The notes under the pieces were generated by a model, which was not told the DNA's origin, ran no database searches, and saw only the letters and a program-made list of their open reading frames with translations. Of a stretch of DNA of 64,000 nucleotides, positions 453 through 58,168 are shown piece by piece. Within the stretch, counting starts at the first letter, position 1. The number at the start of each line of letters is the position of its first letter. The position numbers and the translations under genes were made by a program. Source of the stretch: Bacteroidota bacterium (GTDB taxonomy: Bacteria; Bacteroidota; Ignavibacteria; OLB7); NCBI GenBank assembly GCA_048498995.1, contig JBEHWX010000005.1:12758-76757 (forward strand), in the 5' to 3' direction.

Positions 453-3400
453 TTACCACTGATGCCAGCGGGAGACACCGTCGCTGTACAGACGGAACGA
501 GCCCGTCGCCGTGCCGAACGTGATCGACAGTGACGTCGACGACGCGTTGATCAGGTCCGTGCCGCTTCGGCTGATCGTGATGTTGTTCGTGCCGGCGTTG
601 CCCAGCTCGTTCTTGATCACGATGACCGCTCCGGCCGGCACCGAATTGGCCGCCGGCAGGTTGACGGTCGCCGGGCCGCTGGTCACGTCCACGCCGATGA
701 TCTCGTCGGTCGACGCGGCATTGTACGTCGTGCCACCGGGAGCACCGGTCACGGTGGTGCGAGCCATCTTGACCCTTCCGTAGCCCCACGCGGCGCTCGA
801 GCCGTTGTAGGTCAGAACCTGGCCGGTGGAAGCGCCGGAGGTGCTCATCTTCGCCGGCGTCACGTTGCCGTCGGAGATCTTCGAGGTCGTCACCGCGTTG
901 CTGGCGATCGTCGGGTTCGGGTAGGTGCCCGACAGGTCGCCACCCGCCGAGCCGCTCGGCGTGGCCGTCGGCGTGGTCCAGGTCATCGTGGCCGAGTCCA
1001 CGCCGTTGCTGGTCGCAAGCGACAGAACCTGACCGACCGAGCCGACCACCGCCGGCAGAACGTAGTTGCCGCTATTCGAAACCGACGGAGCGCGAAGGCC
1101 CACGTACTGCGTGCCGGTGCCGCTCGGCTCCTGCCAGCGGATGTCGCGGCCGTTGTTGTCCGAGTTGGTCAGTGCGATGCGCGAGTTCGACGCGATCATG
1201 AACGTTCCGGCGAACGTCTGGTTGGCCGTCCACGTGTTCGCGTTGCCGAGGTTGACGGCCAGCGGCGAGCCCGAGGTACCGTTGCCGCTCAACGTCGCGT
1301 TGTGCGTGACGGTCGCGCTCACCGTGGTCCATGCCACGTTGGTGCCGTTGTAGGTCAGCGCCTGGCCGCTCGTGGCACCGGTCGGGTCGATCTTCGACGG
1401 CGTCACCGCCGCGTTGGCGATATGAGCGGTGGTAACCGCGTTGGTCGCCAGCTTCAGGCCGCTGACCGCCGAGTCGGCCAGATCGGCCGTGGCGATCGTG
1501 CCGTCGAGAATCTTCGCCGAGGTTACCGCGCCATCGGTCAGATCGGCGGCAACGATACTATTGGCAAGACTCAGTTTCGAGTAGGCAATCGCCGCGCTCG
1601 AGGAGATGTCCGCGTCGACGATCGTGCCGTCGGCGATCTTCGCGGAGGTCACCGCGTCGTTGGCGATCGTCGGATTCGGATAGGTGCCGGTCAGATCACC
1701 GCCGGCCGAGCCGCTGGCGCCGCCGGTGGTCCAGACCACGTTCGCGCCGTCATAGCCGATCACCTGGCCGCTGCTTGCGCCCGCGGCACTGATCTTGGCC
1801 AGCGTCACGTTCGCGTCGGCGATCTTCGAGGTCGTCACCGCGTTGTCCGCGATCGTCGGGTTCGGGTAGGTGCCCGTCAGGTCGCCACCCGCCGTGCCGC
1901 TCGCCGTCGGCGTGATCCAGGTCATCGTGGCCGAGTCGATGCCGTTGCTGGTCGCAAGCGACAGAACCTGACCGACCGAGCCGACCACCGCCGGCAGAAC
2001 GTAGTTGCCGCTATTCGAAACCGACGGAGCGCGAAGGCCCACGTACTGCGTGCCGGTGCCGCTCGGCTCCTGCCAGCGGATATCGCGGGCGTTGTTGTCC
2101 GAGTTGGTCAGCGCGATGCGCGAGTTCGACGCGATCATGAACGTTCCGGCGAACGTCTGGTTGGCCGTCCACGTGTTCGCGTTGCCCAGGTTGACAGCCA
2201 GCGGCGAGCCCGAGGAGCCGTTGCCACTCAGCGTCGCGTTGTGCGTCACGTTGCTGGTCGGCGTGCTCCAGACCACGTTCGTGCCGTTGTAGGTCAGCGC
2301 CTGGCCGCTTGTGGCACCGGTCGGATCGATGTTCGACGTCGCCACCGCGCCGGTCGCAAGGTCGGCGGAGACGATCGTGCCGTCGGCGATCTTCGCCGAG
2401 GTGATCGCGCCGTCGGCCACGTGGGCCGTGGTCACCGCGTCGGTGCCGAGCTTCAGGCTCGTCACCGCGCTGTCGGCAAGCTTCGACGTCGTCACATTGC
2501 CGTCAGTGATCTTCGACGTCGTCACCGCGTTGGCGGCGATGGTCGGGTTCGGATACGTGCCCGAGAGATCTCCACCGGCCGCGCCGCTCGGCGGCAGATC
2601 GGTCGGAGCGCCGGTCAGCTTCGAGTAGCTGATGCCGTTGGCGACCTTCGCATCCGTGATCGCGCCGTCGGCCACGTGGGCCGTGTTCACCGCCGCCGTC
2701 CCGAGCTTCAGGCTCGTCACGGCACTGTCGGCCAACTTGGCCGTGGTCACGTTGCCGTCGGCGATCTTCGAGGTCGTCACCGCGTCGGCGGTAATGTCGC
2801 CGGCCACGATGCTGTTCGAGAGATTCAGCTTCGAGTAAGCGATCGCCGCCGAGGCGTTGATGTCGGCGTCGACGATCGTGCCGTCGGCGATCTTCGCCGA
2901 GGTGATCGCGCCGTCGGCCACATGCGCGGTGTTCACCGCGTCGGTGCCGAGCTTCACGCTCGTCACCGCGCTGTCGGCCAGCTTGGCCGTCGTCACGTTC
3001 GCGTCGGTGATCTTCGACGTCGTCACCGCGTTGGCGGCGATGGTCGGGTTCGGATACGTGCCCGAGAGATCTCCACCGGCCGCGCCGCTCGGCGGCAGGT
3101 CGGTCGGAGCGCCGGTCAGCTTCGAGTAGCTGATGCCGTTGGCGACCTTCGCGTCCGTGATCGCGCCGTCGGCCACGTGGGCCGTGTTCACCGCCGCCGT
3201 GCCGAGCTTCAGGCTCGTCACCGCGCTGTCGGCCAGCTTCGCCGTCGTCACGTTCGCGTCGACGATCTTCGCGGTCGTCACCGAGCCGTCAGCCAGCTTC
3301 GGCGTGGTCACGCTTCCGTCGGCGATCTTCGAGGTCGTCACCGCGTCGGCGGTAATGTCGCCGGCCACGATGCTGTTCGAGAGATTCAGCTTCGAGTAAG

Positions 3401-6400
3401 CGATCGCCGCCGAGGCGTTGATGTCGGCGTCGACGATCGTGCCGTCGGCGATCTTCGCCGAGGTGATCGCGCCGTCGGCCACGTGAGCCGTGTTCACCGC
3501 GCTGGTGCCGAGCTTCAGGCTCGTCACCGCGCTATCGGCCAGCTTCGCGGTCGTGACGTTGCCGTCAGCGACCTTCACCGTCGTCACCGAGGCGTCGGCC
3601 AGCTTGGCCGTCGTCACGTTCGCGTCGGAGATCTTCGAGGTCGTCACCGCGTTGGCGGCGATGGTCGGATTCGGATACGTGCCCGAGAGATCTCCACCGG
3701 CCGCGCCGCTCGGCGGCAGGTCGGTCGGCGCTCCGGTCAGCTTCGAGTAGCTGATACCGTTGGCGACCTTCGCGTCCGTGATCGCGCCGTCGGCCACATG
3801 GGCCGTGTTCACCGCCGCCGTGCCGAGCTTCAGGCTCGTCACCGCGCTGTCGGCCAGCTTCGCCGTCGTCACCGAGCCGTCGGTCAGATCGGCCGTCACG
3901 ATGCTGTTGGCAAGGTTGAGCTTCGAGTAGGCGATCGCCGCCGAGGCGTTCACATCGGCGTTGGTGATCGCGCCGTCGGCGATCTTCGCGCTCGTCACCG
4001 AGCCGTCGGCCAGGTCGCCCGTGGCGATCGTGCCGTCGAGGATCTTCGCCGAGGTGATCGCGCCATCCTTCACATGCGCGGTGTTGACCGCGTTGGTGCC
4101 GAGCTTCACGCTCGTCACGGCGCTGTCGGCGAGCTTCGCCGTCGTCACCGAGCCATCGGCAAGCTTGGAGGTCGTGACGGCACCGGCGGCGATGTCGGCC
4201 GCCACGATCGACGCATCGGCGATCGAAGCGCTGTTGACCGCGCCGACGGCGATGTCGCCGTTGACGATGCTGCTGGTCAGCGCCAGCTTCGAGTAGGCGA
4301 TGGCGGCCGTCGGGGAGACATCCGCGTTGACGATGGTGCCGTCGGCGATCTTCGCGCTCGTCACCGAGCCGTTGGCCAGGTCGCCGGTGGCGATCGTGCC
4401 GTCGGCGATCTTCGCGCTCGTCACCGAGCCGTCGGCCAGATCGCTCGTGGCGATCGTGCCGTCGGCGATCTTCGCGCTCGTCACCGCGTCGTTGGCGATG
4501 GTCGGGTTCGGATAGGTGCCGGTCAGATCACCACCGGCCGCGCCTCCCGGCGTCGAGCCGCCCCAGACCAGGCTGGAGCCGTTGTACATCAGCGACTGTC
4601 CGGCCGAGGCGCCGGTCGGATCGATCTTCGGCAGCGTCACCGCCTCATCGGCGAGCTTCGCGGTCGTGACGGCGCCGGACGCGATGTCCACCGCCACCAC
4701 CGACTCATCCTCGATCGAAACGCTGTTGACCGCGCCGAGCGTCAGGTCGCTGTTGACGATATGATTCGTCAGGTTCAGCTTGCTGTAGGCGATCGCGGCG
4801 TTCGGAGCAACGTCCACATCCATGATGGTCGAGTCGGCGATCTTCGCCGAGGTCACCGAGCTGTCGGTCAGGTCGCTGGTGGCGATGCTGTTGGCAAGGT
4901 TGAGCTTGCTGTACGCGATCGCGGCCGAGGCGTTGACGTCGGCGTTGGTGATCGTGCCATCGCTGATCTTCGCGGAGGTCACCGAGCCATCGGCCAGGTG
5001 CGCCGTGTTCACCGCGGCCGCTCCGATCTTCACGCTCGTCACCGAGCTGTCGGCAAGCTTCGCGGTCGTGACCGAGGCATCGGCCAGATCCGCCGTGGCG
5101 ATCGTGCCGTCGGCGATCTTCGCGGTCGTCACGTTCGCATCGGCAAGCTTCGCCGTCGTCACCGAGCCGTCGGTCAGGTCGGCGGCAACGATGCTGTTGG
5201 TCAGATTCAGCTTGCTGTAGGCAATCGCCGCGTTGGTCGCGACATCGGCGTTGGCGATGGTGCCGTCGGCGATCTTCGCCGAGGTCACCGAGCCATCGAC
5301 CAGATCGGTCGTTGCGATGCTTCCGGTCAGGTTGAGCTTCGAGTAGGCGATCGCCGCCGAGGCATTCACGTCGGCGTTGGTGATCGCGCCGTCGGCGATC
5401 TTCGCCGAGGTCACCGCGTCATCCGAGATCTTCACCGTCGTGATCGCGGCGTCGGCGATCTTCGCGGTCAGGACCGAGCCGTCTGCCAGCTTGATCGAGA
5501 TGACCGAGCCATCGGCGATGTGCGCGGTGTTGACCGCGCCGGTGCCGATCTTCAGGCTCGTCACCGCCGAGTCGGCCAGCTTCGCCGTCGTCACCGAGCC
5601 GTCGGCGATCTTCGCCGTGGTCACGGCGTTGTTCGTGAGATCGGCCGTGACGATGCTGTTGGCGAGGTTCAGCTTCGAGTAGTTGATCGCGGCCGTCGGC
5701 GAGACGTCGGCGTCCGTGATCGTCGAGTCGGCGATCTTCGCGGAGGTCACCGAGCCGTTGGCCAGATCGCCGGTGGCGATGCTGCCGGCCAGATCGAGCT
5801 TCGAGTAGGCGATCGCGGCCGAAGCGTTCACGTCGGCGTTGGTGATCGTGCCGTCGGCGATCTTCGCCGAGGTGATCGCGCCGTCGGCCACATGCGCGGT
5901 GTTCACCGCGTCGGTGCCGAGCTTCACGCTCGTCACCGAGCTATCGGCAAGCTTCGCCGTCGTCACGTTCGCGTCGACGATCTTCGCGGTCGTCACCGAG
6001 CCGTCGGCAAGCTTCGACGTCGTGATGGCGCCATCGGCCACGTGAGCCGTGTTGACGGCCGCGGTGCCGAGCTTCAGGCTCGTCACGGAGCTGTCGGCCA
6101 GTTTCGCGGTCGTCACGTTGCCGTCGGCAATCTTCGCCGTGGTCACGCTACCGTCGGCCAGTTTCGCGGTCGTCACATTCGCGTCGGCCATCTTCGCCGT
6201 CGTGATAGCGCCGTCGGCCACATGCACCGTGGTCACGGCGTTGGTGCCGATCTTCACGCTGGTAACGGCGCTGTCGGCGAGCTTCGGCGTCGTCACCGAG
6301 CCATCGGCAAGCTTCGAGGTCGTCACGTTCGCATCGGCCATCTTCGCGGTGGTCACCGCGCCGTCGGCAAGCTTCGGCGTCGTCACCGAGCCGTCGGCAA

Positions 6401-9400
6401 GCTGCGCGGTGTTGACCGCGTCGGCGGCAAGCTTCACGCTCGTCACCGAGCTGTCGGCAAGCTTTGCCGTCGTCACGTTCGCGTCGGCGATCTTCGAGGT
6501 CGTCACCGAGCCGTCGGCAAGCTTCGCCGTCGTCACGTTCGCGTCGGCGATCTTCGAGGTCGTCACCGAGCCGTCGGCAAGCTTCGCCGTCGTCACGTTC
6601 GCGTCGGCGATCTTCGAGGTCGTGATTGCGCCGTCGGCCACATGAGCCGTATTCACCGCATTCGTACCCAGCTTCAGGCTCGTCACCGCGCTATCGGCCA
6701 GCTTCGGCGTCGTCACCGATCCATCGGCGAGCTTGGCCGTCGTCACGTTCGCATCGGAGATCTTCGAGGTCGTGATGGCGCCGTCGGCCACGTGGACCGT
6801 GGTCACCGAGCCGGTACCGAGCTTCACGCTCGTGATCGAGCTGTCGGCCAGCTTCGGCGTGGTCACATTGCCATCGGCAAGCTTCGGCGTGGTGATCGCG
6901 CCATCGGCCACGTGGGCCGTATTGACGGCCGCGGTGCCGATCTTCAGGCTCGTCACCGAGCTGTCGGCAAGCTTCGCCGTCGTCACACTGCCATCGGCCA
7001 GTTTGGCCGTGGTCACGTTGGCGTCGGCAAGCTTCGAGGTCACGATGGCACCGTCAGCGACATGAGCGGTGTTGACCGCGCTGGTGCCGAGCTTCGCGCC
7101 GGTCACCGAGCTGTCGGCAAGCTTCGCCGTCGTCACGTTACCGTCGACGATCTTCGCCGTGGTCACGCTACCGTCAGCGAGCTTGGCTGTCGTCGCAGCG
7201 CCATCAGCGAGCTTCGGCGTCGTCACCGAACCATCCGCGATATGCGCCGTGGTCACCGCGCCGGTGCCGAGCTTCGCGCCGGTCACCGAGCTGTCAGCAA
7301 GCTTCGCGGTCGTCACGTTGCCATCGGCAAGCTTCGCCGTGGTCACGCTGCCGTCGGCGAGCTTCGCCGTGGTCACGTTCGCGTCGGCGATCTTCGAGGT
7401 CGTGATGGCACCATCGGCCACATGAGCCGTGTTCACCGCATTCGTGCCCAGCTTCACGCCGGTCACCGAGCTGTCGGCCAGTTTCGCCGTCGTCACCGAG
7501 CCGTCGGCCAGCTTGGCGGTCGTCACATTCGCGTCGGCAAGCTTCACGGTGGTCACCGCGCCGTCGGCAAGCTTCGGGGTCGTCACCGAGCCATCGGCCA
7601 AGTGCGCGGTGTTGACCGCGTCGGCGGCGAGCTTCACGCTTGTCACGGAGCTGTCGGCCAGCTTCGCGGTCGTCACGTTACCGTCAACGATCTTCGCGGT
7701 GGTCACGCTACCGTCAGCGAGCTTGGCCGTCGTCACGTTCGCATCGGCAAGCTTCGCCGTCGTGATCGCGCCGTCGACGACGTGAGCCGTATTGACGGCA
7801 TTGGTGCCGAGCTTCACGCCGGTCACCGAGCTATCGGCAAGCTTCGCGGTCGTCACGTTGCCGTCGACGATCTTCGCCGTCGTCACACTGCCATCAGCGA
7901 GCTTCACGGTCGTTACCGAGCCATCGGCCAGCTTCGCGGTAGTTGCAGCACCATCAGCAAGCTTCGGCGTCGTCACCGAGCCATCGGCCAGGTGCGCCGT
8001 GGTCACCGCGCTGGTGCCGAGCTTCGCGCCGGTCACCGAGCTGTCAGCGAGCTTCGCCGTGGTAACGCTTCCGTCGGCGAGCTTCGCCGTCGTCACCGAT
8101 CCGTCAGCCAGCTTCGCGGTCGTCGCCGCACCATCAGCGAGCTTCGGCGTCGTCACCGAGCCGTCCGCGATATGTGCCGTGGTCACCGCATTCGTGCCCA
8201 GCTTCACGCCGGTCACCGAGCTGTCGGCCAGCTTGGCCGTCGTCACATTCGCGTCGGCCATCTTCGCGGTGGTCACCGCGCCGTCAGCCAGCTTCGGCGT
8301 CGTCACCGAGCCATCAGCCAGGTGCGCCGTGTTCACCGCGTTGGTGCCGAGCTTTGCGCTCGTCACCGAGCTGTCGGCCAGCTTCGCCGTCGTCACGTTG
8401 CCATCGACGATCTTCGCGGTGGTCACCGAGCCGTCAGCGAGCTTGGCGGTCGTCACGTTCGCGTCGGCGATCTTCGCCGTCGTGATCGCGCCGTCGACGA
8501 GGTGAGCGGTGTTGACCGCATTGGTGCCGAGCTTCACGCCGGTCACCGAGCTGTCGGCAAGCTTCGCGGTCGTCACGTTGCCGTCGACGATCTTCGCGGT
8601 GGTCACCGAGCCGTCGGCAAGCTTCACGGTCGTTACCGAGCCGTCGGCAAGCTTGGCGGTAGTTGCAGCGCCATCGGCAAGCTTCGGCGTCGTCACCGAG
8701 CCATCGGCCAGGTGCGCCGTGTTCACCGCATTCGTGCCGAGCTTCGCGCTCGTCACCGAGCTGTCGGCCAGCTTCGCCGTCGTGACATTGCCATCGACGA
8801 TCTTCGCCGTCGTCACGCCGCCGTCAGCAAGCTTCGCCGTCGAAACACTTCCGTCAGCGAGCTTGGCCGTGGTGACCGAGCCATCGGTGAGGTCGGAAGT
8901 GACGATACTATTGTTGAGATTCAGCTTGCCGTAGGCGATCGAGGCCGTCGGGCTCACGTCGGCATCGACTATCGTACCGTCGGCGATCTTCGCCGAGGTC
9001 ACCGATCCGTCGGCAAGCTTCGCGGTACCGATGGCGCCGTCGGCGATCTTCGCCGAGGTGATCGCGCCATCGGTCACATGGGCGGTATTCACGGCATTGG
9101 TGCCGAGCTTGGCGCCCGTAACGGAGCTGTCAGCCAGCTTCGCCGTGGTCACGCCACCGTCGGCAAGCTTCGCGGTCGACACACTGCCATCGACAAGCTT
9201 CGCCGTGGTCACGCTGCCATCAGCCAGCTTCGCGCTCGTGATCGCGCCGTCGGTCACATGTGCCGTGGTGACGGCGTTGGTGCCGAGTTTGGCGCTGGTC
9301 ACCGCGCTATCGGCCAGCTTCGCGGTCGTCACGCTGCCATCGGCAAGCTTGGTCGCGGTCACACTGGCGTCGGCGAGCTTCGGGGTGGTGACACTGCCGT

Positions 9401-11339
9401 CAGCGAGCTTCGCGGTCGCGATGGCACCGTCGGCGATCTTCGCCGACGTGATGGCGCCGTCGGTTACGTGCGTCGTGGTAACGGCGTTGGTGCCGAGCTT
9501 CGCGGAGGTTACCGCGCTGTCGGCGAGCTTGGCGGTCGTGACATTGCCGTCGACGATCTTCGCGGAGGTCACCGATCCGTCAGCCAGCTTCGCGGTGGTC
9601 ACCGATCCATCGACAAGCTTCGCGGTCGAGACCGAGCCATCGGCAAGCTTCGCCGTGGTCACGGCGCCGTCAGTCAGATCACCCGTCGTGATGCTGTTGG
9701 CCAGATTGAGCTTGCTGTAGGCGATGGCGGCGGTCGGCGAAACATCGGCGTTGACGATCGTGCCGTCGGCGATCTTCGCCGAGGTCACCGATCCGTCGGT
9801 CAGCTTCGCGGTACCGATGGCGCCGTCGGCGATCTTCGCCGAGGTGATCGCGCCGTCGGCAACATGGGTCGTGGTGACGGCGTTGGTGCCGAGCTTCGCG
9901 GAGGTCACCGCGCTATCGGCCAGCTTCGCCGTGGTCACATTGCCATCGACGATCTTCGCCGTCGAGACCGAGCCGTCGGCCAGCTTCGCGGAGGTGACGG
10001 AGCCATCGGCGAGCTTCGCGGTCGTGGCGCTGCCGTCGGCCAGCTTGGCCGAGGTCACGCCGCCGTCGGCGAGCTTCGCGGTCGTCACGCTGCCATCGGC
10101 CAGCTTCGTGGAGGTCACGGCATTGGCGGCGATGGTCGGGTTCGGGAAGGTGCCGGTCAGATCTCCACCGGCCTCGCCGGTCGGCGGCAGCGACGTCGGG
10201 GCTCCGGAGAGCTTCGAGTAGCTGATGCCGTTGGCGACCTTCGCGTCGGTGATCGCGCCGTCGGCCACGTGGGCAGTAGTGACCGCGCCGGTGCCGAGCT
10301 TCACGCTGGTCACCGCGCTGTCGGCGAGCTTCGCCGTGGTCACCGAGCCGTTGGCAAGCTTCGCCGTCGTGACCGAGCCATCGGCCAGCTTCGCCGTCGA
10401 GACCGAGCCATCGGCGAGCTTCGCGCTGGTCACGGCACCGTCGGCCAGGTCACCGGTCGCGATGCTGTTGGCCAGGTCGAGCTTGCTGTAGGCGATGGCG
10501 GCGCTCGGCGAGACATCGGCATCGATGATCGTGCCGTCGAGGATCTTCGCGGTGGTCACCGAACCATCTGCCAGCTTCGCGGTCGCAACCGAGCCGTCAG
10601 CCAGCTTCGTGGAGGTCACCGAACCGTCGACGATCTTCGCGGAGGTCACCGAGCCGTCAGCCAGCTTCGTGGAGGTAACGCTCCCATCGGCCAGTTTGGC
10701 CGAGCTCACCGATCCGTCTGCCAGCTTGGCGGTGATCACCGATCCGTCGATCAGCTTCGTCGAGGTGACGCTGCCATCGGCCAGCTTCGGGGAGGTCACC
10801 GCGCCATCGGCCAGCTTCGGAGTCGTGACCGAGCCGTCGGCAAGTTTCGCGGTGGTCACCGATCCGTTGGCCAGCTTCGCTCCGGTGATCGATCCGTCGA
10901 GGATCGAGCTCATGTCGATCTCGCCGGCAACGGCCATCGAGGTGTCGGCCCGGTGCGCGCGCACCGCGTACGGGGAGATCGGTAGCTGGATACGCGGGGT
11001 CAGCTCCGCGCCGCTGCCGACGCTGATGCCCACCCAATACTGCTGGTCGAACTGAATGCTCGCGAGCGACGTGTAATTGCCGAGGATGACATTGAAGCGC
11101 TTCACCTGGCCGGCCGTGATCAGGGGCACATTGAAGCTCTCGGTCCAGATTGCCGTTCCGCCGGAAGCGGACGTATACAGTCTGAAGGTCATCATCGGGT
11201 TGGTGCTCAACCCAGCCTGGGTGTTCGTAAGATCACCCTGTAGACTCAAGGTAGGTGGCACCTGCGCATACGCGGACGTACCGCTCAGCGCAATCACGCC
11301 GCATGTTACGATCGCATGCAGTAGTGATCGGTTCCTCAT
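453..11339 (-). CDS. Giant secreted decapeptide-repeat protein (tail-fibre-like), 3,628 aa
   Basis: Uninterrupted ORF (track 453..11384). I prefer the ATG at 11339 because GGGAG lies 7 nt upstream and it gives a Sec signal peptide (MRNRSLLHAIVTCGVIALSGTSAYA|Q). After a ~150-aa N-terminal domain, most of the length is a 10-aa repeat [KR][LIV]AD[GSA]xVT[TS]x. It is punctuated 8 times by GGDL[TS]GT[YF]PNPTIA, by AIAYSKL[ND]L, and by PTGA[ST]xGQxLxYNG motifs. Two ~110-aa copies of 'NATLSGNG..NTWTANQTF..' lie near the C-terminus. Confidence 0.85.
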   Translation of the reverse strand: MRNRSLLHAIVTCGVIALSGTSAYAQVPPTLSLQGDLTNTQAGLSTNPMMTFRLYTSASGGTAIWTESFNVPLITAGQVKRFNVILGNYTSLASIQFDQQYWVGISVGSGAELTPRIQLPISPYAVRAHRADTSMAVAGEIDMSSILDGSITGAKLANGSVTTAKLADGSVTTPKLADGAVTSPKLADGSVTSTKLIDGSVITAKLADGSVSSAKLADGSVTSTKLADGSVTSAKIVDGSVTSTKLADGSVATAKLADGSVTTAKILDGTIIDADVSPSAAIAYSKLDLANSIATGDLADGAVTSAKLADGSVSTAKLADGSVTTAKLANGSVTTAKLADSAVTSVKLGTGAVTTAHVADGAITDAKVANGISYSKLSGAPTSLPPTGEAGGDLTGTFPNPTIAANAVTSTKLADGSVTTAKLADGGVTSAKLADGSATTAKLADGSVTSAKLADGSVSTAKIVDGNVTTAKLADSAVTSAKLGTNAVTTTHVADGAITSAKIADGAIGTAKLTDGSVTSAKIADGTIVNADVSPTAAIAYSKLNLANSITTGDLTDGAVTTAKLADGSVSTAKLVDGSVTTAKLADGSVTSAKIVDGNVTTAKLADSAVTSAKLGTNAVTTTHVTDGAITSAKIADGAIATAKLADGSVTTPKLADASVTATKLADGSVTTAKLADSAVTSAKLGTNAVTTAHVTDGAITSAKLADGSVTTAKLVDGSVSTAKLADGGVTTAKLADSSVTGAKLGTNAVNTAHVTDGAITSAKIADGAIGTAKLADGSVTSAKIADGTIVDADVSPTASIAYGKLNLNNSIVTSDLTDGSVTTAKLADGSVSTAKLADGGVTTAKIVDGNVTTAKLADSSVTSAKLGTNAVNTAHLADGSVTTPKLADGAATTAKLADGSVTTVKLADGSVTTAKIVDGNVTTAKLADSSVTGVKLGTNAVNTAHLVDGAITTAKIADANVTTAKLADGSVTTAKIVDGNVTTAKLADSSVTSAKLGTNAVNTAHLADGSVTTPKLADGAVTTAKMADANVTTAKLADSSVTGVKLGTNAVTTAHIADGSVTTPKLADGAATTAKLADGSVTTAKLADGSVTTAKLADSSVTGAKLGTSAVTTAHLADGSVTTPKLADGAATTAKLADGSVTTVKLADGSVTTAKIVDGNVTTAKLADSSVTGVKLGTNAVNTAHVVDGAITTAKLADANVTTAKLADGSVTTAKIVDGNVTTAKLADSSVTSVKLAADAVNTAHLADGSVTTPKLADGAVTTVKLADANVTTAKLADGSVTTAKLADSSVTGVKLGTNAVNTAHVADGAITTSKIADANVTTAKLADGSVTTAKLADGNVTTAKLADSSVTGAKLGTGAVTTAHIADGSVTTPKLADGAATTAKLADGSVTTAKIVDGNVTTAKLADSSVTGAKLGTSAVNTAHVADGAIVTSKLADANVTTAKLADGSVTTAKLADSSVTSLKIGTAAVNTAHVADGAITTPKLADGNVTTPKLADSSITSVKLGTGSVTTVHVADGAITTSKISDANVTTAKLADGSVTTPKLADSAVTSLKLGTNAVNTAHVADGAITTSKIADANVTTAKLADGSVTTSKIADANVTTAKLADGSVTTSKIADANVTTAKLADSSVTSVKLAADAVNTAQLADGSVTTPKLADGAVTTAKMADANVTTSKLADGSVTTPKLADSAVTSVKIGTNAVTTVHVADGAITTAKMADANVTTAKLADGSVTTAKIADGNVTTAKLADSSVTSLKLGTAAVNTAHVADGAITTSKLADGSVTTAKIVDANVTTAKLADSSVTSVKLGTDAVNTAHVADGAITSAKIADGTITNADVNASAAIAYSKLDLAGSIATGDLANGSVTSAKIADSTITDADVSPTAAINYSKLNLANSIVTADLTNNAVTTAKIADGSVTTAKLADSAVTSLKIGTGAVNTAHIADGSVISIKLADGSVLTAKIADAAITTVKISDDAVTSAKIADGAITNADVNASAAIAYSKLNLTGSIATTDLVDGSVTSAKIADGTIANADVATNAAIAYSKLNLTNSIVAADLTDGSVTTAKLADANVTTAKIADGTIATADLADASVTTAKLADSSVTSVKIGAAAVNTAHLADGSVTSAKISDGTITNADVNASAAIAYSKLNLANSIATSDLTDSSVTSAKIADSTIMDVDVAPNAAIAYSKLNLTNHIVNSDLTLGAVNSVSIEDESVVAVDIASGAVTTAKLADEAVTLPKIDPTGASAGQSLMYNGSSLVWGGSTPGGAAGGDLTGTYPNPTIANDAVTSAKIADGTIATSDLADGSVTSAKIADGTIATGDLANGSVTSAKIADGTIVNADVSPTAAIAYSKLALTSSIVNGDIAVGAVNSASIADASIVAADIAAGAVTTSKLADGSVTTAKLADSAVTSVKLGTNAVNTAHVKDGAITSAKILDGTIATGDLADGSVTSAKIADGAITNADVNASAAIAYSKLNLANSIVTADLTDGSVTTAKLADSAVTSLKLGTAAVNTAHVADGAITDAKVANGISYSKLTGAPTDLPPSGAAGGDLSGTYPNPTIAANAVTTSKISDANVTTAKLADASVTTVKVADGNVTTAKLADSAVTSLKLGTSAVNTAHVADGAITSAKIADGTIVDADINASAAIAYSKLNLSNSIVAGDITADAVTTSKIADGSVTTPKLADGSVTTAKIVDANVTTAKLADSAVTSLKLGTAAVNTAHVADGAITDAKVANGISYSKLTGAPTDLPPSGAAGGDLSGTYPNPTIAANAVTTSKITDANVTTAKLADSAVTSVKLGTDAVNTAHVADGAITSAKIADGTIVDADINASAAIAYSKLNLSNSIVAGDITADAVTTSKIADGNVTTAKLADSAVTSLKLGTAAVNTAHVADGAITDAKVANGISYSKLTGAPTDLPPSGAAGGDLSGTYPNPTIAANAVTTSKITDGNVTTSKLADSAVTSLKLGTDAVTTAHVADGAITSAKIADGTIVSADLATGAVATSNIDPTGATSGQALTYNGTNVVWSTPTSNVTHNATLSGNGSSGSPLAVNLGNANTWTANQTFAGTFMIASNSRIALTNSDNNARDIRWQEPSGTGTQYVGLRAPSVSNSGNYVLPAVVGSVGQVLSLATSNGIDSATMTWITPTASGTAGGDLTGTYPNPTIADNAVTTSKIADANVTLAKISAAGASSGQVIGYDGANVVWTTGGASGSAGGDLTGTYPNPTIANDAVTSAKIADGTIVDADISSSAAIAYSKLSLANSIVAADLTDGAVTSAKILDGTIATADLADSAVSGLKLATNAVTTAHIANAAVTPSKIDPTGATSGQALTYNGTNVAWTTVSATVTHNATLSGNGTSGSPLAVNLGNANTWTANQTFAGTFMIASNSRIALTNSDNNGRDIRWQEPSGTGTQYVGLRAPSVSNSGNYVLPAVVGSVGQVLSLATSNGVDSATMTWTTPTATPSGSAGGDLSGTYPNPTIASNAVTTSKISDGNVTPAKMSTSGASTGQVLTYNGSSAAWGYGRVKMARTTVTGAPGGTTYNAASTDEIIGVDVTSGPATVNLPAANSVPAGAVIVIKNELGNAGTNNITISRSGTDLINASSTSLSITFGTATGSFRLYSDGVSRWHQW
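850..2340 (-). repeat. Long direct duplication inside the giant gene (two ~0.55-kb copies, 939-bp offset)
   Basis: Near-identical DNA at ~850..1400 and ~1790..2340. For example, 981 ggtcatcgtggccgagtcca.. matches 1920 ggtcatcgtggccgagtcga... The plus-strand shadow ORFs 1066..1353 and 2005..2292 both begin MPLFETDGARRPTYCVPVPLGSCQR. Confidence 0.85.
6481..6623 (-). repeat. Exact 60-bp tandem duplication (2 full copies plus 23 nt of a third)
   Basis: Lines 6481..6540 and 6541..6600 are identical (gcgtcggcgatcttcgaggtcgtcaccgagccgtcggcaagcttcgccgtcgtcacgttc). The next 23 nt repeat again. This encodes (TSKIADANVTTAKLADGSVT)n. Confidence 0.95.
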
Positions 11340-11346
11340 TATGAAA

Positions 11347-11351
11347 CTCCC
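11347..11351 (-). promoter_or_regulatory. Shine-Dalgarno-like GGGAG for the giant gene
   Basis: Minus-strand GGGAG lies 7 nt upstream of the ATG at 11339. Confidence 0.5.
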
Positions 11352-12035
11352 GTTATTGGTCCTTACCGGGCACGAGGTCGTCATCCAGGCGGAGGGGTGA
11401 AGCGAGGCAGGAGAGCTGGCTGATCGAGATCGCCGGATCTAGATATTGTGCGAAACTGATGTTATGTGGCCGGAATCGGAATGACGCGTTCCGTTCCGTG
11501 TTGGTCGACCGAGGAAGAATGCAACAGCATCACCCCTGGGAAGAGAGGAGATGGGGTCCTCGACGTCACGACGTCCGCATCGACGCCCTCAAGCAACAAC
11601 GCTGATCTTCATCACGAGAAGCGGCGATGGCCTGCCACCTCTCCCTCACGCGCTGCTTGCTTCGTACCGGGGGCGTGATGTCAACGACAAGATGAATGCG
11701 CGACGGGCATCGCCATCCAAAATCAACGTCGTCAATTCTGTCCACCGAGGTGGGGATGTCCCCTTCGGGCCTTCCCGGTGAACGATTGTGGAGTACGGTC
11801 CCAGATTGTGGGCGGGCAAATATACATGGCCATTTCGAAACGGCCCAATATGGGATGGAAATATGTTCAGCCATCATTCACCCCTCCCTCTCCCACGCTT
11901 CCGGCCCTCCCACGCCGGAATCCTCTCCCGAGCGGCACCCGGTTCCTCGGGGCCGGACGATGCCTCGGCCGATTGGCGAGCTCTTTGCATGGTCCGCCGG
12001 GGATGGCTTCGACAACAGACGCGGGAGAATGAAGG

Positions 12036-12383
12036 ATGAATCCGAAGTTCGATCTGGAGCAGGCCGGCGAGCTCCTCGGCAAGCGGGTGATCGTCGATCT
12101 GACGGTCCGTGACCATGACGAGCGGCTGGTCGAGCGGCGGCAGCTGTTCGGAGAGATCCAGCGGATCAACGAGAACGAGGGGGTGGTGCTGGAGCTGATC
12201 CCCTCCGGCGGCGATTATCGCCTCATCCCGGATCTCGACCAGTTCGTCCCGCTCGAACCGGGGGCCTACCGACTGGAGCCCGCGGGAGAAACGGCGGTCG
12301 ATCCGGACTTCCGCTTCGCCTCGGTGGTCCACCTTCCCCCACCCGAATACGACGGGGCGGCACGGGGAAGCGAGGCCGGATGA
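12036..12383 (+). CDS. Hypothetical protein, 115 aa
   Basis: ATG ORF with a balanced, non-Arg/Pro-biased composition (MNPKFDLEQAGELLGKRVIVDLTVRDHDERLVERRQLFGEIQRINENEG..). GGGAG/GAAGG lies just upstream. I recognise no motif. Confidence 0.5.
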   Translation: MNPKFDLEQAGELLGKRVIVDLTVRDHDERLVERRQLFGEIQRINENEGVVLELIPSGGDYRLIPDLDQFVPLEPGAYRLEPAGETAVDPDFRFASVVHLPPPEYDGAARGSEAG

Positions 12384-12742
12384 AGCGGTGGAAGCCACGC
12401 TCGCGCGGACCCTTACGCGACGTCGCTTTGGCATACTCACCATCGGCTCCTTCCCCTAGTATGCCGTAATACACCCAAAAATCGCGGCAGAATCGACGGT
12501 TTGGAAGACATTCTGGCGGGCGCGTGCCACGCTCCGGCCAACTTTTTGCTTGCTTTGGGAAGAACCCGGGCAGTACCTTCGTCATGGGTTTGATGCGCAC
12601 AGCCCTCCCGTGACCAGCACGGGAAGCAGGTTCAACCACACAACGTCACTACGTACCAGCATCGACAGCACGGACTCCCGGGGATGTTTCCGAACGGCCA
12701 TTCGGACGCACGCACCGTAGCGTCGAACGCACACCACTATTC

Positions 12743-12747
12743 AGGAG
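12743..12747 (+). promoter_or_regulatory. Shine-Dalgarno AGGAG for the 12755 gene
   Basis: ttcAGGAGaagatcaATG; the spacing is 7 nt. Confidence 0.6.
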
Positions 12748-12754
12748 AAGATCA

Positions 12755-13894
12755 ATGTCTCAGCGCAAGAACAGCGGGCGCTCCACGGGGAAGGAGACGG
12801 CCGCAACGACCACCACGAACGACCTGCATCAGGAGCTCGCCGCACTTCAGGCGGCGGCCACGACTCGTCTTCTCAGCCTTGAGGAGACCGCCAGGATCGC
12901 CGAGCTCAGCAACTTCCTCGCGGTTCAGAGCCATGCTTCGCTCACGGCTCCGAAGGCCGCGCTCGGACCGCTCAGCGCGGTGACCGCCTCGCCGGCCGAC
13001 ATCACCGACGAGCTGGCCAAGGGAGGCCCGGCCTTCGGCGCCTTCGTCAAGAGCGTCGGCCTCGGCGTCGCCGATGCCCAGAGCGCGCTCGACCAGAACC
13101 TCGTCACCACCGCCCAAGCCCTCTCGAACACCAACATCGACGTGATCAGCGTGGTGCAGCAGGTGATCGACCCGACCGACGGCAGCCTTCAGAGCCTGAA
13201 CATCATCAAGGAGAAGCTGCCCTTGATCAACTTCCTGCCGCCGGTCTCCTATCAATGGACCCGCGTCTTCCTGCAGGCGGATATGAAGGTCTCGGAGTTC
13301 AACAGCGCCAACGGCTTCAACGTTCAGGGGAAGTCGAAGAGCTTCAGCGCCGGCATCTCCGGCAGCTACGGCACCGGCGGCTTCGGCATCAGCGGCGGAC
13401 TCCGCTACGGCTCGAGCAGCTACAGCGCCTCGGGCGAAAGCTCCTACAGCCAGGACGTGGCCGCCGGCAGCATGCACATGGAGGCGACCCTCGAGCCGCG
13501 TCCGGACATGGTGATTCCGCCGCCGTTCGTGCTCCAGAAGGGGCCGCGGCTGCGCGCGATGCCGAGCGGCATCATCAACATCGGCACCTCGCCGAACTAC
13601 ACCGGCCGCAAGGTGGTGATCACCCTCGAGCTGCTCAACGGCAGCACCGGGCTGGCCGGCAAGACGCTGGAGTTCCACACCAGCGACCCGATGGTCACCT
13701 ACAAGACCTGGCAGGCGTACGACTTCAACACCAACACCGGTTCGACCACCAGCACCGCCACCAACTCGACCGGCATCCTCTATCTGGAAGTCATTCGTGA
13801 CGGCGCGGCGTTCGATCCGGCCAAGGCCCCGACCCAGGTCGTTATCCGCTCGTGGTTCGGCCTCGTGGCCGCCGAGAGCGCCATCGTGGTGTAA
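12755..13894 (+). CDS. Hypothetical protein, 379 aa: helix motif, Gly/Ser/Tyr-rich beta insert, and a C-terminal Ig-like-looking domain; no signal peptide
   Basis: Strong SD and protein-like composition. Contains the motif SVGLGVADAQSALD, a low-complexity insert SGSYGTGGFGISGGLRYGSSSYSASGESSYS, and then ..SMHMEATLEPRP. The C-terminal ~120 aa (RKVVITLELLNGSTGLAGKTLEFHTSD..TNSTGILYLEVIRDG) resembles bacterial Ig-like folds by eye. Confidence 0.75.
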   Translation: MSQRKNSGRSTGKETAATTTTNDLHQELAALQAAATTRLLSLEETARIAELSNFLAVQSHASLTAPKAALGPLSAVTASPADITDELAKGGPAFGAFVKSVGLGVADAQSALDQNLVTTAQALSNTNIDVISVVQQVIDPTDGSLQSLNIIKEKLPLINFLPPVSYQWTRVFLQADMKVSEFNSANGFNVQGKSKSFSAGISGSYGTGGFGISGGLRYGSSSYSASGESSYSQDVAAGSMHMEATLEPRPDMVIPPPFVLQKGPRLRAMPSGIINIGTSPNYTGRKVVITLELLNGSTGLAGKTLEFHTSDPMVTYKTWQAYDFNTNTGSTTSTATNSTGILYLEVIRDGAAFDPAKAPTQVVIRSWFGLVAAESAIVV

Positions 13895-13898
13895 CGCC

Positions 13899-15179
13899 AT
13901 GGCACTTACTGATTTCCACCGCAGATTCGACGACAGCGTCCGCTGGCGTCTCACACCCGATGGTGTCGAGATCGAGGGGAGCGGCATCGAGCGGACGAAG
14001 GGAAATCCGGCCACGGTCACCAAGGTCTGGGAGAGTTATTCGGCGGAGATCAACCGCACGGCACGCTCACGAGGCGTGCCGTGCGCCTTGATCATCGCCA
14101 CGATCTGCACCGAATCGGGAGGACGCGCCTCGGCGATCCGCCTGGAGCCCGGCTACAAGTCGGACCAGGCGACGCCGGGAAAGGTCAGCCCGGGGCTGAT
14201 GCAGACGTTGATCTCCACGGCGCGCGAAGCGATGAAGGACAACTCGATCGATCGGGATTGGCTGCTGAAGGCGGGCAACTCGATCGAGGCGGGAACGGCG
14301 GTGATCGCCAAACAGTCCAGCAAGACGCACCTCGATCCCCCGTTGGTGGCCGCCGCCTACAACTCCGGCGGCGTCTACGAGCAGACCGGGGCGAACAATC
14401 GCTGGAAGCTGCGCCAGTACCCGATCGGTACCAGCGCTCACTGCGATCGCTTCATCAAGTTCTTCAACGACGCGGTCTACGTGCTGAAGAACCATGGGAC
14501 CAAGCCCTCGGTCGGGATCGAGAAGCTGCTCGACAACGCAGTCACCTCGGTCGGTCCGAGTGCCACATCCGGAACCACGAACGCCCCCGCGGCCAACAGC
14601 GCCACCGTCTCCGGCAGCCCGCGGGTCGCGTCCTCTCCCGGAGGACGGTCCTCCACCGGAGGACGGCAGGAGACGAAGTCGTCGAATGATATCAAGATCT
14701 CCTTCGGCCCGAACGCGAAGGCAGCCGACGTGACCGCCTACTCACGGACGGTCCTGGAGGAGATCATGAGAGCGGCCGACCTGAAGTCGGCTTCGATCTC
14801 AAGCACGCAACGGAATCCGGCCGATCAGGCTCGCGTGATGTACAACAACCTCGAGAAGTACGGCGTCGCCGCGCAGAAGAAGCTCTACGCGGCCGCCGGC
14901 GACAAGGTGATCGACGTCTACGCGAAGTCGAAAGCAGCCAACAAGTCCGCCGACCAGATCAAGGCGGACATGGAGCGGAAGATCATCGAGCTCGGGCCGA
15001 CCAGCGTCTCCCGACATGCTTCCGATCCGAAGATCCTGAACGTCTTCGACGTGGATCCGAGCTCCATCAGAAACCGCCGGGGCTTCGAGCAGGCGGTCAG
15101 GTCGGACAACCGCGTCACGAAGTTCCTCGTCCCTCCGGACGATCCGGGATACCACCTGGAGATCCCGCAGAAGCAGTGA
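13899..15179 (+). CDS. Lytic transglycosylase (GH23/SLT) domain protein with an uncharacterised C-terminal domain, 426 aa; no signal peptide
   Basis: The ATG at 13899 lies 4 nt after the upstream stop; the track ORF from 13797 overlaps the previous gene. SLT motifs are present: ..ICTESGG (catalytic Glu-Ser), GLMQ, AAYNSGG. A Ser/Pro/Gly linker follows. The C-terminal ~150 aa (..ISSTQRNPADQ..VSRHASD..FDVDP..PGYHLEI) is possibly LAS/M15-like; this is tentative. Confidence 0.8.
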   Translation: MALTDFHRRFDDSVRWRLTPDGVEIEGSGIERTKGNPATVTKVWESYSAEINRTARSRGVPCALIIATICTESGGRASAIRLEPGYKSDQATPGKVSPGLMQTLISTAREAMKDNSIDRDWLLKAGNSIEAGTAVIAKQSSKTHLDPPLVAAAYNSGGVYEQTGANNRWKLRQYPIGTSAHCDRFIKFFNDAVYVLKNHGTKPSVGIEKLLDNAVTSVGPSATSGTTNAPAANSATVSGSPRVASSPGGRSSTGGRQETKSSNDIKISFGPNAKAADVTAYSRTVLEEIMRAADLKSASISSTQRNPADQARVMYNNLEKYGVAAQKKLYAAAGDKVIDVYAKSKAANKSADQIKADMERKIIELGPTSVSRHASDPKILNVFDVDPSSIRNRRGFEQAVRSDNRVTKFLVPPDDPGYHLEIPQKQ

Positions 15180-15200
15180 CCACAACGAGAGATTCGACCC

Positions 15201-15539
15201 ATGGAGTTCGAATACCTGGACCCGTCCGACGGGGAGCGCGCGCTGCCGGTGCATCCGGCGGAGCACATCTTCGCGGCGATGGCCCGCAGCATGGTCGAAG
15301 CGCAGCGCGAGCTCGATGAGGCCGCGCGCGCGGCCATCCTCGAATGGGAGAACAACGGCGTTCCCCCCTCGGCGGTCGTATGGTCACTCTGCACGGCTAC
15401 CTTCCCGTCGGTACTCGGATGCCGTCCGAAACAGGAGCCCGGGGAACAAACGCGCATGAGCATCGCCCCGCGTCAGGAGGCGCGGGGCGGTGTCTCCTTC
15501 TCGATTCGCTACCACACCACTCCACTAGAGGAGCCCTAA
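15201..15539 (+). CDS. Hypothetical protein, 112 aa, carrying the shared helix motif
   Basis: ATG lies 21 nt after the upstream stop. Contains AMARSMVEAQRELD, then a beta-like segment ending GVSFSIRYHTTPLE. It is in an operon-like tight arrangement. Confidence 0.6.
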   Translation: MEFEYLDPSDGERALPVHPAEHIFAAMARSMVEAQRELDEAARAAILEWENNGVPPSAVVWSLCTATFPSVLGCRPKQEPGEQTRMSIAPRQEARGGVSFSIRYHTTPLEEP

Positions 15540-15544
15540 CCACT

Positions 15545-16795: not shown

Positions 16796-16903
16796 CCGGC
16801 GGCGGCAGCGAACGGATCCTCGCGCCCCGCGCGAGGCAATGAGAACACGCCCGTGACCGAGTCGTCGGTGCATCGACGCTCGAACACCACCAACAACACG
16901 AGT

Positions 16904-16909
16904 AAGGAG
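16904..16909 (+). promoter_or_regulatory. Shine-Dalgarno AAGGAG for the C1 peptidase gene
   Basis: agtAAGGAGagaggcaccATG; the spacing is 9 nt. Confidence 0.6.
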
Positions 16910-16918
16910 AGAGGCACC

Positions 16919-21101: not shown

Positions 21102-21305
21102 GTCGTTGGTCCGCGTGATCAGCCGTCGGGGGTTGGAGGACGGGGTTGTTTCAGGCTCGTGAAGAAGGTGAAAGCTACACGTTTGCCCCGGCCGTGACAA
21201 GGGCCTCGAACCCGCTCCCCCTCGAGGCCGGCCTCCGCCCCGGCGCGTCGTATCTTTGCTGCGGCTCGTTTCCCCTCTCCCGAACATCGATCCCGAGCGA
21301 CGACG

Positions 21306-47683: not shown

Positions 47684-47716
47684 CTGCTAGTTGGGGCGAG
47701 CCCGGGTCGTTGGTTG

Positions 47717-58054: not shown

Positions 58055-58168
58055 TTCGCGCCGCGGGCGGGCCGAGTGCGAGCGCGGCGTGACCGGTGCC
58101 TCCGGATCGACTCCCGCGCACCCTGCCATGAAGCCCGATCGCGCCAGGCGCGCGGCATGGCCTGAAAC

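Follow-up and report, generated by a model that had tools for sequence, protein, structure and literature searches.

A giant decapeptide-repeat protein of a Kapaibacteria-related bacterium, akin to phage tail fibres and a candidate surface fibril

The window analysed here, a stretch of 64,000 nucleotides from contig JBEHWX010000005.1 of assembly GCA_048498995.1, carries on its minus strand a giant gene for a secreted protein of 3,628 residues, most of which is built from a ten-residue repeat. On balance we favour the view, with some reserve, that this gene encodes a Sec-exported, phage-tail-fibre-like protein of a Kapaibacteria-related bacterium (Fibrobacteres-Chlorobi-Bacteroidetes, FCB, group), which would form a long surface fibril or adhesin and would probably be trimeric. 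The architecture of the protein, its homology relations, its C-terminal fold, the absence of a type IX secretion system (T9SS) tail and the chromosomal context of the gene are established. Judged by sequence comparison, the protein is an extreme-length member of a large, catalogued and functionally undescribed family in which its size alone is not unusual. What is exceptional about it is the purity of its repeat array, not its size.

A single stop-free open reading frame (ORF) occupies 453..11384 on the minus strand, with the stop codon at 453-455 and 3,643 residues from the first ATG. Residue numbers in this text are counted from that upstream ATG at 11384; subtracting 15 converts them to the 3,628-residue numbering from the ATG at 11339. 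The latter codon is Met16 of the longer frame (MRNRSLL...) and is the likelier start because a GGGAG lies 7 nt upstream of it. The GC content at third codon positions (GC3) is 0.88 for the giant ORF, a typical coding value for a window of 66% GC. The first features of the gene are the following.

453..11339, minus strand: coding sequence of the giant protein, 3,628 residues plus stop codon, an intact ORF with a GC3 of 0.88; the alternative ATG at 11384 gives 3,643 residues.
11347..11351, minus strand: Shine-Dalgarno-like GGGAG, 7 nt 5' of the ATG at 11339, a putative ribosome-binding site judged from the sequence.
11265..11339, minus strand: Sec (signal peptidase I type) signal peptide MRNRSLLHAIVTCGVIALSGTSAYA, read from the sequence, with predicted cleavage before Q.
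10908..11264, minus strand: family-specific N-terminal domain of ~110 aa (QVPPTLSLQGDL...ELTPRIQLPISPYAVRA), defined by alignment with relatives; AlphaFold2 (AF2) predicts strands at low confidence.

The signal peptide was called by reading the sequence together with the corresponding junctions of homologues, which have the same A-x-A / Q-[VI]-P-R junction immediately before the conserved N-terminal domain. Signal peptidase I substrates of Bacteroidota are known to favour a Gln at position +1, as is predicted here. An earlier description made from the sequence alone (the sequence-only reading) had proposed a secreted protein of 3,628 residues, and the single ORF at 453-11339 and the Sec-type signal peptide bear this out. 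The opposite strand also holds a long ORF (1302-10985, plus strand; 3,227 aa) with GC contents of 0.89/0.55/0.56 by codon position. It was rejected as a gene and is taken to be a stop-free shadow of the repeat, since the GC3 signal (0.89) falls on its first codon position. Gene callers could mis-annotate this shadow ORF.

The period of the repeat was determined by autocorrelation over the whole protein. Lags of 10 and 20 gave residue identities of 0.345 and 0.347 over a background of ~0.08, and lag 5 gave no signal (0.082). Tiling with an iterated position-specific scoring matrix (PSSM) and dynamic programming placed 247 canonical decapeptides between residues 160 and 3511, with the unit consensus K(75%)-L/I(90%)-A(71%)-D(79%)-G(60%)-A/S(78%)-V/I(98%)-T(78%)-T(63%)-A(69%). 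The runs of units are interrupted by 14 degenerate 22-aa coils of the form 'D[VI]xxxAAIAYSKLxLxxSIxxx' (type D-V-S-P-T-A-A-I-A-Y-S-K-L-N-L-A-N-S-I-x-T-G). Units and coils together amount to 2,470 + 308 = ~2,780 aa, in good agreement with the ~2,800 repeat residues and 250-300 units of the sequence-only reading. At the DNA level the shaft has a period of 30 nt with ~65% identity. The two main parts of the array are listed below.

2334..10907, minus strand: repeat shaft, residues 160-3017, with most of the 247 units, 13 of the 14 22-aa coils and five of the eight DUF5907 inserts (tiling and lag-10 autocorrelation).
5835..8894, minus strand: longest unbroken array, 102 decapeptides, residues 831-1850 (1,020 residues; PSSM tiling).

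Within the 102-unit run, position 6 of the repeat (S/A/N) alternates with a period of two units, identity being 0.19, 0.37, 0.15 and 0.34 at unit lags 1-4. The same run contains a super-repeat marker, KLADSSVTxx-KLGTNAVNTA-H[VL]ADG, and any 20-residue register would be repeatedly shifted because this marker recurs at irregular intervals of 3-7 units. The Pfam family Decapeptide (PF25296) matched with 50.9 bits against a cut-off of 45 (E 1.4e-13) over one stretch, residues 1588-1652, corresponding to profile positions 3-67 of 74. Array purity was compared with that of relatives by a consensus-free measure, in which windows count as periodic from 30% identity at lag 10 upwards. In the giant protein the longest 10-periodic segment spans 1,045 aa, and in none of the 150 best representatives of an exhaustive HMMER search with residues 601-1800 does it exceed 468 aa; periodic residues total 2,014 in the giant protein and no more than 1,246 in any of these 150. 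The members of the FCB-group family that were examined had at most 29 contiguous canonical units by PSSM, as against the 102 of the giant protein, and their periodic segments likewise stayed within 468 aa.

The 30-nt DNA units are mutually 60-85% identical. The commonest unit peptide, KLADGSVTTA, is present in 19 copies that have 19 different DNA sequences (mean pairwise identity 82%), and third-position identity at identical four-fold residues is 0.55 versus 0.42 expected from composition. Because one identical peptide is encoded in 19 different ways with near-random synonymous sites, the units are old duplicates under selection at the peptide level, and neither recent slippage nor assembly duplication has produced them. 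Exact DNA repeats of at least 127 nt are confined to the C-terminal part (1002-1142/1941-2081 and 2755-2921/3316-3482), which makes the copy number of the C-terminal super-units vulnerable; the main array has three short patches of exact repeat of at least 77 nt. The same population is represented in two other public assemblies. One contig of the metagenome-assembled genome GCA_048498215.1 (NCBI) is identical to window positions 46019-59193, and another, JBEHYK010000470.1, is 99.98% identical to 11041-15495 and contains no more than the first 343 nt of the ORF (counted from 11384). The end of a Logan contig (SRR35123092) falls within the second repeat unit, at window position 10851. These public assemblies (99-100% identity; loci L031 and L032) probably lack the giant gene or contain it in pieces.

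The kinship of the repeat with phage tail fibres, which the sequence-only reading had suggested, was supported by several comparisons. A slice of 1,000 aa matched the tail-fibre families PHROG 28766 (2.7e-255) and PHROG 892 (2.4e-236), and the C-terminal domain matched tail-fibre PHROGs at ~1e-6 (PHROG 11518 at 6e-6). By tblastn the repeat was found in 197 phage records; the phage fibres among the matches listed were 46-63% identical over ~300 aa, with E-values down to 1e-68. In the T7-like cyanophage S-TIP37 the repeat forms ~30 units of a 1,008-aa 'tail fiber-like protein' (gp39), whose gene directly follows that of the internal core protein and whose N-terminus we take to be T7 gp17-like. 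The T7-like cyanophage fibres in general (PHROG 28766 and 892; S-TIP37 gp39, S-CBP3, S-CBP4, P-GSP1, NATL2A-133) share with the giant protein the K-[IL]-A-D-x-A-V-T-T-A repeat, phage-type end modules and the putative fibre role. They lack a signal peptide, presumably have a virion-attachment N-terminus and reach ~30 units in ~1,000 aa, whereas the giant protein is chromosomally encoded and has a Sec signal, a cellular N-terminal domain and ~250 units. Of the properties of a virion tail fibre, homology of the shaft and tip modules was found; a phage structural module, looked for among the neighbours tested, and a virion-attachment N-terminus were not.

The C-terminal end of the protein was modelled with AF2 as a single chain (residues 3160-3643, fragment alignment of 56 rows). 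The predicted local distance difference test score (pLDDT) exceeded 90 over the last ~105 residues (~3539-3643). Foldseek searches of this model against the PDB gave a baseplate protein of Klebsiella phage KP1 (9f4b_FA; 6.5e-7, root-mean-square deviation (rmsd) 2.5 Å over 103 columns), the N-terminal fragment of CBA120 TSP4 (7rej; 1.1e-5) and a 602-residue T4 baseplate chain (5iv5_AC; 8.6e-5). The matches of the gp10/XD type had a probability of 1.00, an rmsd of 2.5-4 Å over 100-120 columns and a sequence identity of 20-24%. In BFVD, 97 matches at E<=1e-3 included tail fibres, self-chaperoned fibres and gp10 wedge proteins. The T4 chain was taken as gp10 because of its length and the gp10 matches in BFVD, and the Foldseek match was assigned to the C-terminal domain because this is the sole confident part of the model and alignments of ~100-120 columns fit it. 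According to the model, the C-terminal ~105 aa have a T4 gp10/XD-like fold. The XD domains of CBA120 TSP4 belong to a trimer and serve in protein-protein binding, like those of T4 gp10 (PMC8825819). In T4 gp10 and CBA120 TSP2-TSP4 the XD domain is an N-terminal or internal baseplate adaptor, whereas here it is predicted, from a single-chain model, at the extreme C-terminus of a cellular protein. A further PDB match, 9eg4_H, was dropped as a guide to the fold of the repeat; it is a chain of the LME-1 capsid entry, probably the head-decoration protein, for which the accompanying paper reports a trimeric base and unmodelled distal parts.

The array is punctuated and closed by recurrent modules, at the following positions.

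10128..10169, minus strand: DUF5907 motif GGDLTGTFPNPTIA, copy 1 of 8 (regular expression and coordinates).
4494-4535, 3657-3698, 3036-3077, 2535-2576, 1848-1889, 1662-1703 and 903-944, minus strand: DUF5907 motif, copies 2-8 (regular expression).
1905..2267, minus strand: NATLSGNG...LGNANTWTANQTF module, copy 1, ~120 aa (motif and coordinates).
960..1328, minus strand: NATLSGNG module, copy 2, AF2 pLDDT 50-86.
456..770, minus strand: C-terminal domain of ~105 aa (…TDEIIGVDVTSGPATVNLPAA…FRLYSDGVSRWHQW), predicted T4 gp10 / XD-like beta-sandwich, AF2 pLDDT >90.

All the motifs described in the sequence-only reading could be recovered, together with the two NATLSGNG modules and the unique C-terminus. 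The motif GGDL[TS]GT[YF]PNPTIA occurs in exactly eight copies by regular expression, and the Pfam family DUF5907 (PF19264) matched the whole protein with 27.2 bits (cut-off 27) over nine stretches and an isolated 60-aa segment with 32.6 bits; DUF7638 was a borderline Pfam match of the whole protein. Four KVANGISYSKLxGAPTxLPP elements lead into GGDLxGTYPNPTIA. The AIAYSKL-type motif was found 13 times by regular expression, with one additional SIAYGKL variant, and PTGAxxGQxLxYNGxxxxW in three exact copies and two variants. The two NATLSGNG copies, spaced by 939 nt, are 90-100% identical in DNA over ~300 nt (50-nt windows) and their module is 65-89% identical to modules of 52 short relatives; it matched no Pfam family in the library scanned. 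Pfam searches also gave no family for the last 110 aa at E<=10 and no Peptidase_S74 (PF13884) chaperone in the giant protein. No further copy of any of its modules was found elsewhere in the 64-kb window. Threonine ladders had prompted the idea of ice binding; LbR_Ice_bind matched relatives and gave no match on the giant protein.

The family to which the protein belongs is large. The HMMER search retrieved 34,497 representative proteins or clusters at E<=1e-3, of which 1,847 also passed E<=1e-30. The 150 best representatives have a median length of 1,836 aa, 26 of them have at least 3,000 aa and the longest has 6,022 aa. Locus L009 (200-12304 of JAXLVN010000005.1, Ca. Kapaibacterium sp. STL-BAC57) holds an ORF of ~4,000 aa with the same signal peptide and N-terminal domain, a shaft dominated by 27 [DUF5907 + PTGxxxGQ] units instead of pure decapeptides, and a different C-terminal domain. 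The statement of the sequence-only reading that such proteins normally have a few hundred residues and that this copy is expanded ten-fold therefore does not hold. Homologues of equal size, which it had named as a refutation if they were already functionally described, do exist; none that has been functionally described was found, and literature searches yielded nothing relevant on DUF5907 or decapeptide-repeat tail fibres and no functional study of the family.

The N-terminal domain (residues 41-159) is common to 27 of 270 proteins collected by the C-terminal and repeat searches, with local BLASTP E-values of 1e-6 to 7e-21, and in these 27 relatives it stands almost always right after the signal peptide and the Q-[VI]-P-R junction. 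Alignment with the N-termini of 17 relatives gives identities of 28-42%, and G10, E42, G62, P90, R91 and A106 are invariant across the resulting 18 sequences. No Pfam or PDB sequence match was obtained, its profile being without a PDB relative, and a word-index search with the N-terminal 149 aa returned nothing; the family was recovered only by local BLAST of proteins fetched with other queries. This result and the DUF5907 match above its Pfam cut-off agree with the proposal of the sequence-only reading that the N-terminal domain and GGDLxGTYPNP are family hallmarks. A signal peptide, a Q-[VI]-P-R..YQG..W.E....PR...PY domain and decapeptide/DUF5907 repeats were found in the giant protein and equally in L002, L006 and L009. 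From these alignments, the family plan reads as a signal peptide, a conserved N-terminal domain, a decapeptide shaft with DUF5907 and 'AIAYSKL' elements, and an exchangeable C-terminal module. The same C-terminal domain ends several relatives with the N-terminal domain (P0124, P0171, P0186, L002 and L006), whereas P0183 ends in a Peptidase_S74 chaperone (30.6 bits) and P0128 in a weak T9SS tail (24.8 bits). The FCB-group members (P0124, P0130, P0138, P0171; L002, L006, L009; Kapaibacteriota, Chlorobiota) share the N-terminal domain, the repeat and DUF5907, some of them also the C-terminal domain, and range from 860 to ~4,000 aa.

A set of 173 short proteins (240-545 aa) also contains the C-terminal modules, alongside DUF5907, PTL_trimer, C1q, BclA_C, Collar, collagen or Peptidase_S74 domains; several of the C1q, BclA_C, collagen and Collar ends are presumably trimer-forming modules. 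The short Bacteroidota and Kapaibacterium proteins (P0003, P0011, P0016 and P0030, with DUF5907 and PTL_trimer PF26696) share with the giant protein the NATLSGNG module at the identity given above, GGDLxGTYPNP, AIxYSKL and PTGAxxGQ, and their C-terminal '...YSDGVSRWHQW' domain is up to 84% identical to its own. They differ from it in being 7-15 times shorter, in having other N-termini (PTL_trimer or 'ERLVLDD') and, in many cases, in their C1q, BclA_C, Collar, collagen or Peptidase_S74 ends. Peptidase_S74 is also present in the short relative P0021. The PTL_trimer (PF26696) assignments on short relatives that share the C-terminal domain come from precomputed annotations and had no match in local Pfam scans. 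In L036 (10001-10732; JGI 3300000156) the gene for such a short relative lies among Por_Secre_tail and CHU_C (T9SS) cargo genes. Two long proteins carry the repeat in other arrangements: P0121 (3,882 aa) has the same decapeptide in another super-repeat, with a phage-like N-terminus and no signal peptide, and P0123 (2,964 aa) has a near-identical block of ~135 aa repeated ~20 times. These arrangements suggest that the decapeptide was amplified independently in several architectures.

The gene setting is chromosomal. The window encodes a transaldolase, an EPSP-synthase-family protein, a Mur ligase, PtsI, two squalene/phytoene synthases and ABC transporters, and no tRNA was found in the 64 kb. 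PtsI is 60-62% identical to its best named relatives (Candidatus Kapaibacterium and Kapabacteria), followed by Bacteroidota, and the closest loci for the C-terminal part in a 312-aa scan belong to Kapaibacteriota, Chlorobiota, Ignavibacteria and Bacteroidota, with at most 54% identity. Exact-sequence look-ups returned no entry for the giant protein (with either start), the transaldolase or the ORF at 69-344. The neighbours tested gave no match to capsid, portal, sheath, tube, baseplate or terminase proteins. A cluster of five genes (12036-17626, plus strand) diverges from the giant gene and comprises three ORFs without a family match, an SLT gene and a gene for a 257-aa protein that matches PHROG 16701 'peptidase' (2.3e-17); apart from SLT, these neighbours received no Pfam or NCBIfam assignment. 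The cluster does not stand beside the homologues in L002, L006 or L009, and a link between it and the passage of the fibre through the envelope is a guess. Genes that recur upstream of the homologues in L002 and L006 were considered as a shared accessory system and dropped, as they are unrelated to the neighbours in the window. Four neighbouring genes are referred to below.

13797-15179, plus strand: SLT lytic transglycosylase (Pfam/NCBIfam SLT); another annotation gives 426 aa from near 13899.
18246-24533, minus strand: putative T9SS cargo of 2,095 aa with BNR/Sortilin repeats; T9SS-like tail by eye only.
27550-31923, minus strand: putative T9SS cargo of 1,457 aa with FlgD_ig and Por_Secre_tail.
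32343-35933, minus strand: putative T9SS cargo of 1,196 aa with ASH/HYDIN-type Ig domains and Por_Secre_tail.

No T9SS C-terminal domain (PF18962, PF13585 CHU_C, NCBIfam types A and B) was detected at E<=1 on the whole giant protein in Pfam or NCBIfam, while Por_Secre_tail was found in two of the neighbours (27550-31923 and 32343-35933), which served as positive controls; the lack of a T9SS tail noted in the sequence-only reading is thereby confirmed. Its further claim of T9SS tails on three other large proteins was upheld by Por_Secre_tail for two of them, and for the third it depends on inspection by eye. As its large neighbours carry Por_Secre_tail or a T9SS-like tail, the organism probably uses a T9SS.

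The shaft is likely to be a rod of the beta-solenoid type; the canonical monomeric pentapeptide-repeat helix is the less favoured alternative. The searches brought up no solved structure for the repeat region. AF2 modelling of residues 41-640 from the single sequence gave a mean pLDDT of 51 and one strand per 10 residues. Pentapeptide-repeat proteins were the best Foldseek matches of this low-confidence model, with E-values of 0.03 or worse; the AF2 shaft model being unusable, this result is a hint only. It is unlikely, in our estimate, that the shaft is a monomeric right-handed quadrilateral beta-helix (Rfr) of pentapeptide repeats, in which each decapeptide would make two pentads (A-K-L-A-D and G-S-V-T-T), 20 residues a coil and the whole a single-chain rod of ~66 nm. 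Pentapeptide_4 (PF13599 test) did reach 103.4 bits when summed (cut-off 38, E 6.6e-30), and PDB sequence and profile matches comprised designed pentapeptide solenoids (2.9e-9), HetL and Np275/276. Such a helix would also be consistent with a pattern in which every conserved L/I or V/I is preceded, at a distance of two positions, by a small residue (A at position 10, 69%; G at position 5, 60%), with the two-unit alternation of position 6, which fits a 20-residue coil, and with the Foldseek hint. However, identity is absent at lag 5, no Pentapeptide_4 stretch was significant alone, PF00805 was not listed, and the NCBIfam scores stayed far under their cut-offs for HetL (170.6 bits versus 260) and also below for Qnr (48.8 versus 240). 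Canonical pentapeptide proteins are usually predicted well by AF2, which further counts against the Rfr helix at a shaft pLDDT of ~50 or less. The pentad i-1 positions are K and S/A/N and not the D/N of the A-[DN]-[LF]-x-x type, the K, D and T-T that would face outward are highly conserved, and the contexts in which the repeat occurs appear trimeric (a fibre gene at the T7 gp17 position, Peptidase_S74 fibres, a gp10/XD end). The sequence-level matches and the alternation of position 6 speak for the pentapeptide or beta-solenoid idea of the sequence-only reading, and the lack of significant single stretches and the low AF2 confidence speak against it.

Pentapeptide-repeat proteins (MfpA, Qnr, HetL, Np275/276 and designed 'beta1' solenoids) share with the giant protein the small-then-hydrophobic pattern every five residues and the profile matches, whereas the giant protein has a strict 10-residue period, conserved K/D/T-T at positions that would point outward and no pentad identity, is secreted and is ~10-20 times longer. 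DotG, which the giant protein matches directly (E 1.9e-6), is likewise a cell-envelope protein with a long run of 10-aa repeats whose unit number varies, and gives weak Pentapeptide_4 matches; it differs in its consensus, [KR]-x-A-G-[FY]-[STND]-x-x-x-[LI], and in being part of a secretion machine. The DotG repeats gave similar Pentapeptide_4 matches, yet their AlphaFold model is without a classic pentapeptide-repeat helix (bioRxiv 10.1101/2023.03.22.533729), which again argues against the Rfr helix; the published work cautions against deducing the pentapeptide-repeat fold from Pfam matches of this sort. A tentative possibility, which we would not call probable, is that the decapeptide shaft, instead of being a pentapeptide-type solenoid, has a three-chain beta-fold that is so far unsolved and is common to phage fibres and to a large family of cellular proteins, and that the giant protein is a domesticated phage-fibre module, an FCB surface fibril of more than 100 nm whose export and anchoring are independent of a T9SS tail. 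If this were true, the unbroken array of 1,020 residues would be among the longest regular beta-rods known.

For the phage-tail-fibre-like surface fibril that we favour, the following course can be envisaged. The precursor would be exported by Sec and cut after AYA, leaving an N-terminal Gln. Three chains would then associate, and the C-terminal gp10/XD-like domain may nucleate or stabilise the trimer, by analogy with trimeric phage docking modules. About 275 decapeptide-equivalents (247 units and 14 double-length elements) would fold into a regular rod of the beta-solenoid type that could act as a long rigid spacer. From general beta-helix geometry, the rod would be ~66 nm long with two units per 4.8 Å rung and ~130 nm long with a single unit per rung in an intertwined trimer. 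It may have register breaks or hinges at the DUF5907 and 22-aa elements. One end would dock on the cell envelope and the other present a binding domain, as in a surface fibril or adhesin.

Several observations weigh against this proposal. The shaft was modelled with a pLDDT of ~51 from the single sequence, and below 50 and without secondary structure with the 56-row alignment. Trimerisation, rod geometry, surface location and an adhesive function are what we infer, the structure prediction having been single-chain. Sequence and profile scans found no export or anchoring signal besides the Sec signal peptide, and no accessory genes are conserved beside the homologues when L002 and L006 are compared with the window. 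The number of units rests on one assembly, as the contigs from the two further assemblies of this population stop at the array edge. The stops of their contigs at 11041 and 10851, and the exact repeats of at least 127 nt in the C-terminal part, would fit an array length that is an assembly artefact (expansion, collapse or chimerism), with a true gene that is shorter, longer or interrupted. We consider this distinctly improbable, as the frame is open over 10.9 kb with its coding GC3, the main array is nearly free of exact repeats of at least 77 nt, relatives of 2,000-6,000 aa are common, and units of 60-85% DNA identity with near-random synonymous sites are the opposite of what a collapsed or duplicated assembly would give.

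A genuine virion or tailocin component, namely the tail fibre of a nearby prophage or phage-tail-like particle, would account for the strong similarity of the repeat and the C-terminal domain to PHROGs, phage genomes and BFVD entries, and the SLT gene and the phage 'peptidase' match in the divergent cluster could be read in the same way. Such an origin is nonetheless highly unlikely given the Sec signal peptide and an N-terminal domain that is shared with signal-peptide proteins of bacterial genomes and metagenomes and is not of the virion-attachment type. The neighbours tested lack phage structural matches, the surroundings are housekeeping genes and T9SS cargo without a tRNA in 64 kb, and the window holds no further copy of a module. 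The protein might instead be periplasmic or released, serving for example to space the envelope, to build a matrix or sheath, or to decoy phages with similar fibres. This would suit a protein with a Sec signal that lacks a T9SS tail, any lipobox whose -1 residue is canonical and any recognised signal for outer-membrane export, and the adjacent SLT transglycosylase could, speculatively, relate to passage through the peptidoglycan. It is very unlikely in our view: a rod of 66-130 nm exceeds the usual width of the periplasm, related short proteins sit among surface-protein genes (L036), and the T9SS-type tail of P0128 indicates that part of the family at least is extracellular.

Taken with its relatives, the giant protein belongs to a very large repeat family found in the tail fibres of phages as well as in proteins secreted by Bacteroidota, Kapaibacteriota, Chlorobiota and Ignavibacteriota. 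Its 102 unbroken and unusually regular units make it a good template for determining the fold of this widespread repeat, and it offers a handle on the export of long fibres by FCB bacteria without a T9SS tail. If the shaft is a rigid rod, it would be a natural ruler-like scaffold with a length tunable by ~0.24 or 0.48 nm per unit. Current ideas are not overturned: the size is not unique, the modules are already in Pfam and PHROGs, and a function is only proposed. Elsewhere in the window, the two squalene/phytoene synthase genes (SQS_PSY; 47717-48634 and 48826-49926, both minus strand; E 6e-79 and 2e-64) lie beside the Mur ligase gene and ptsI.

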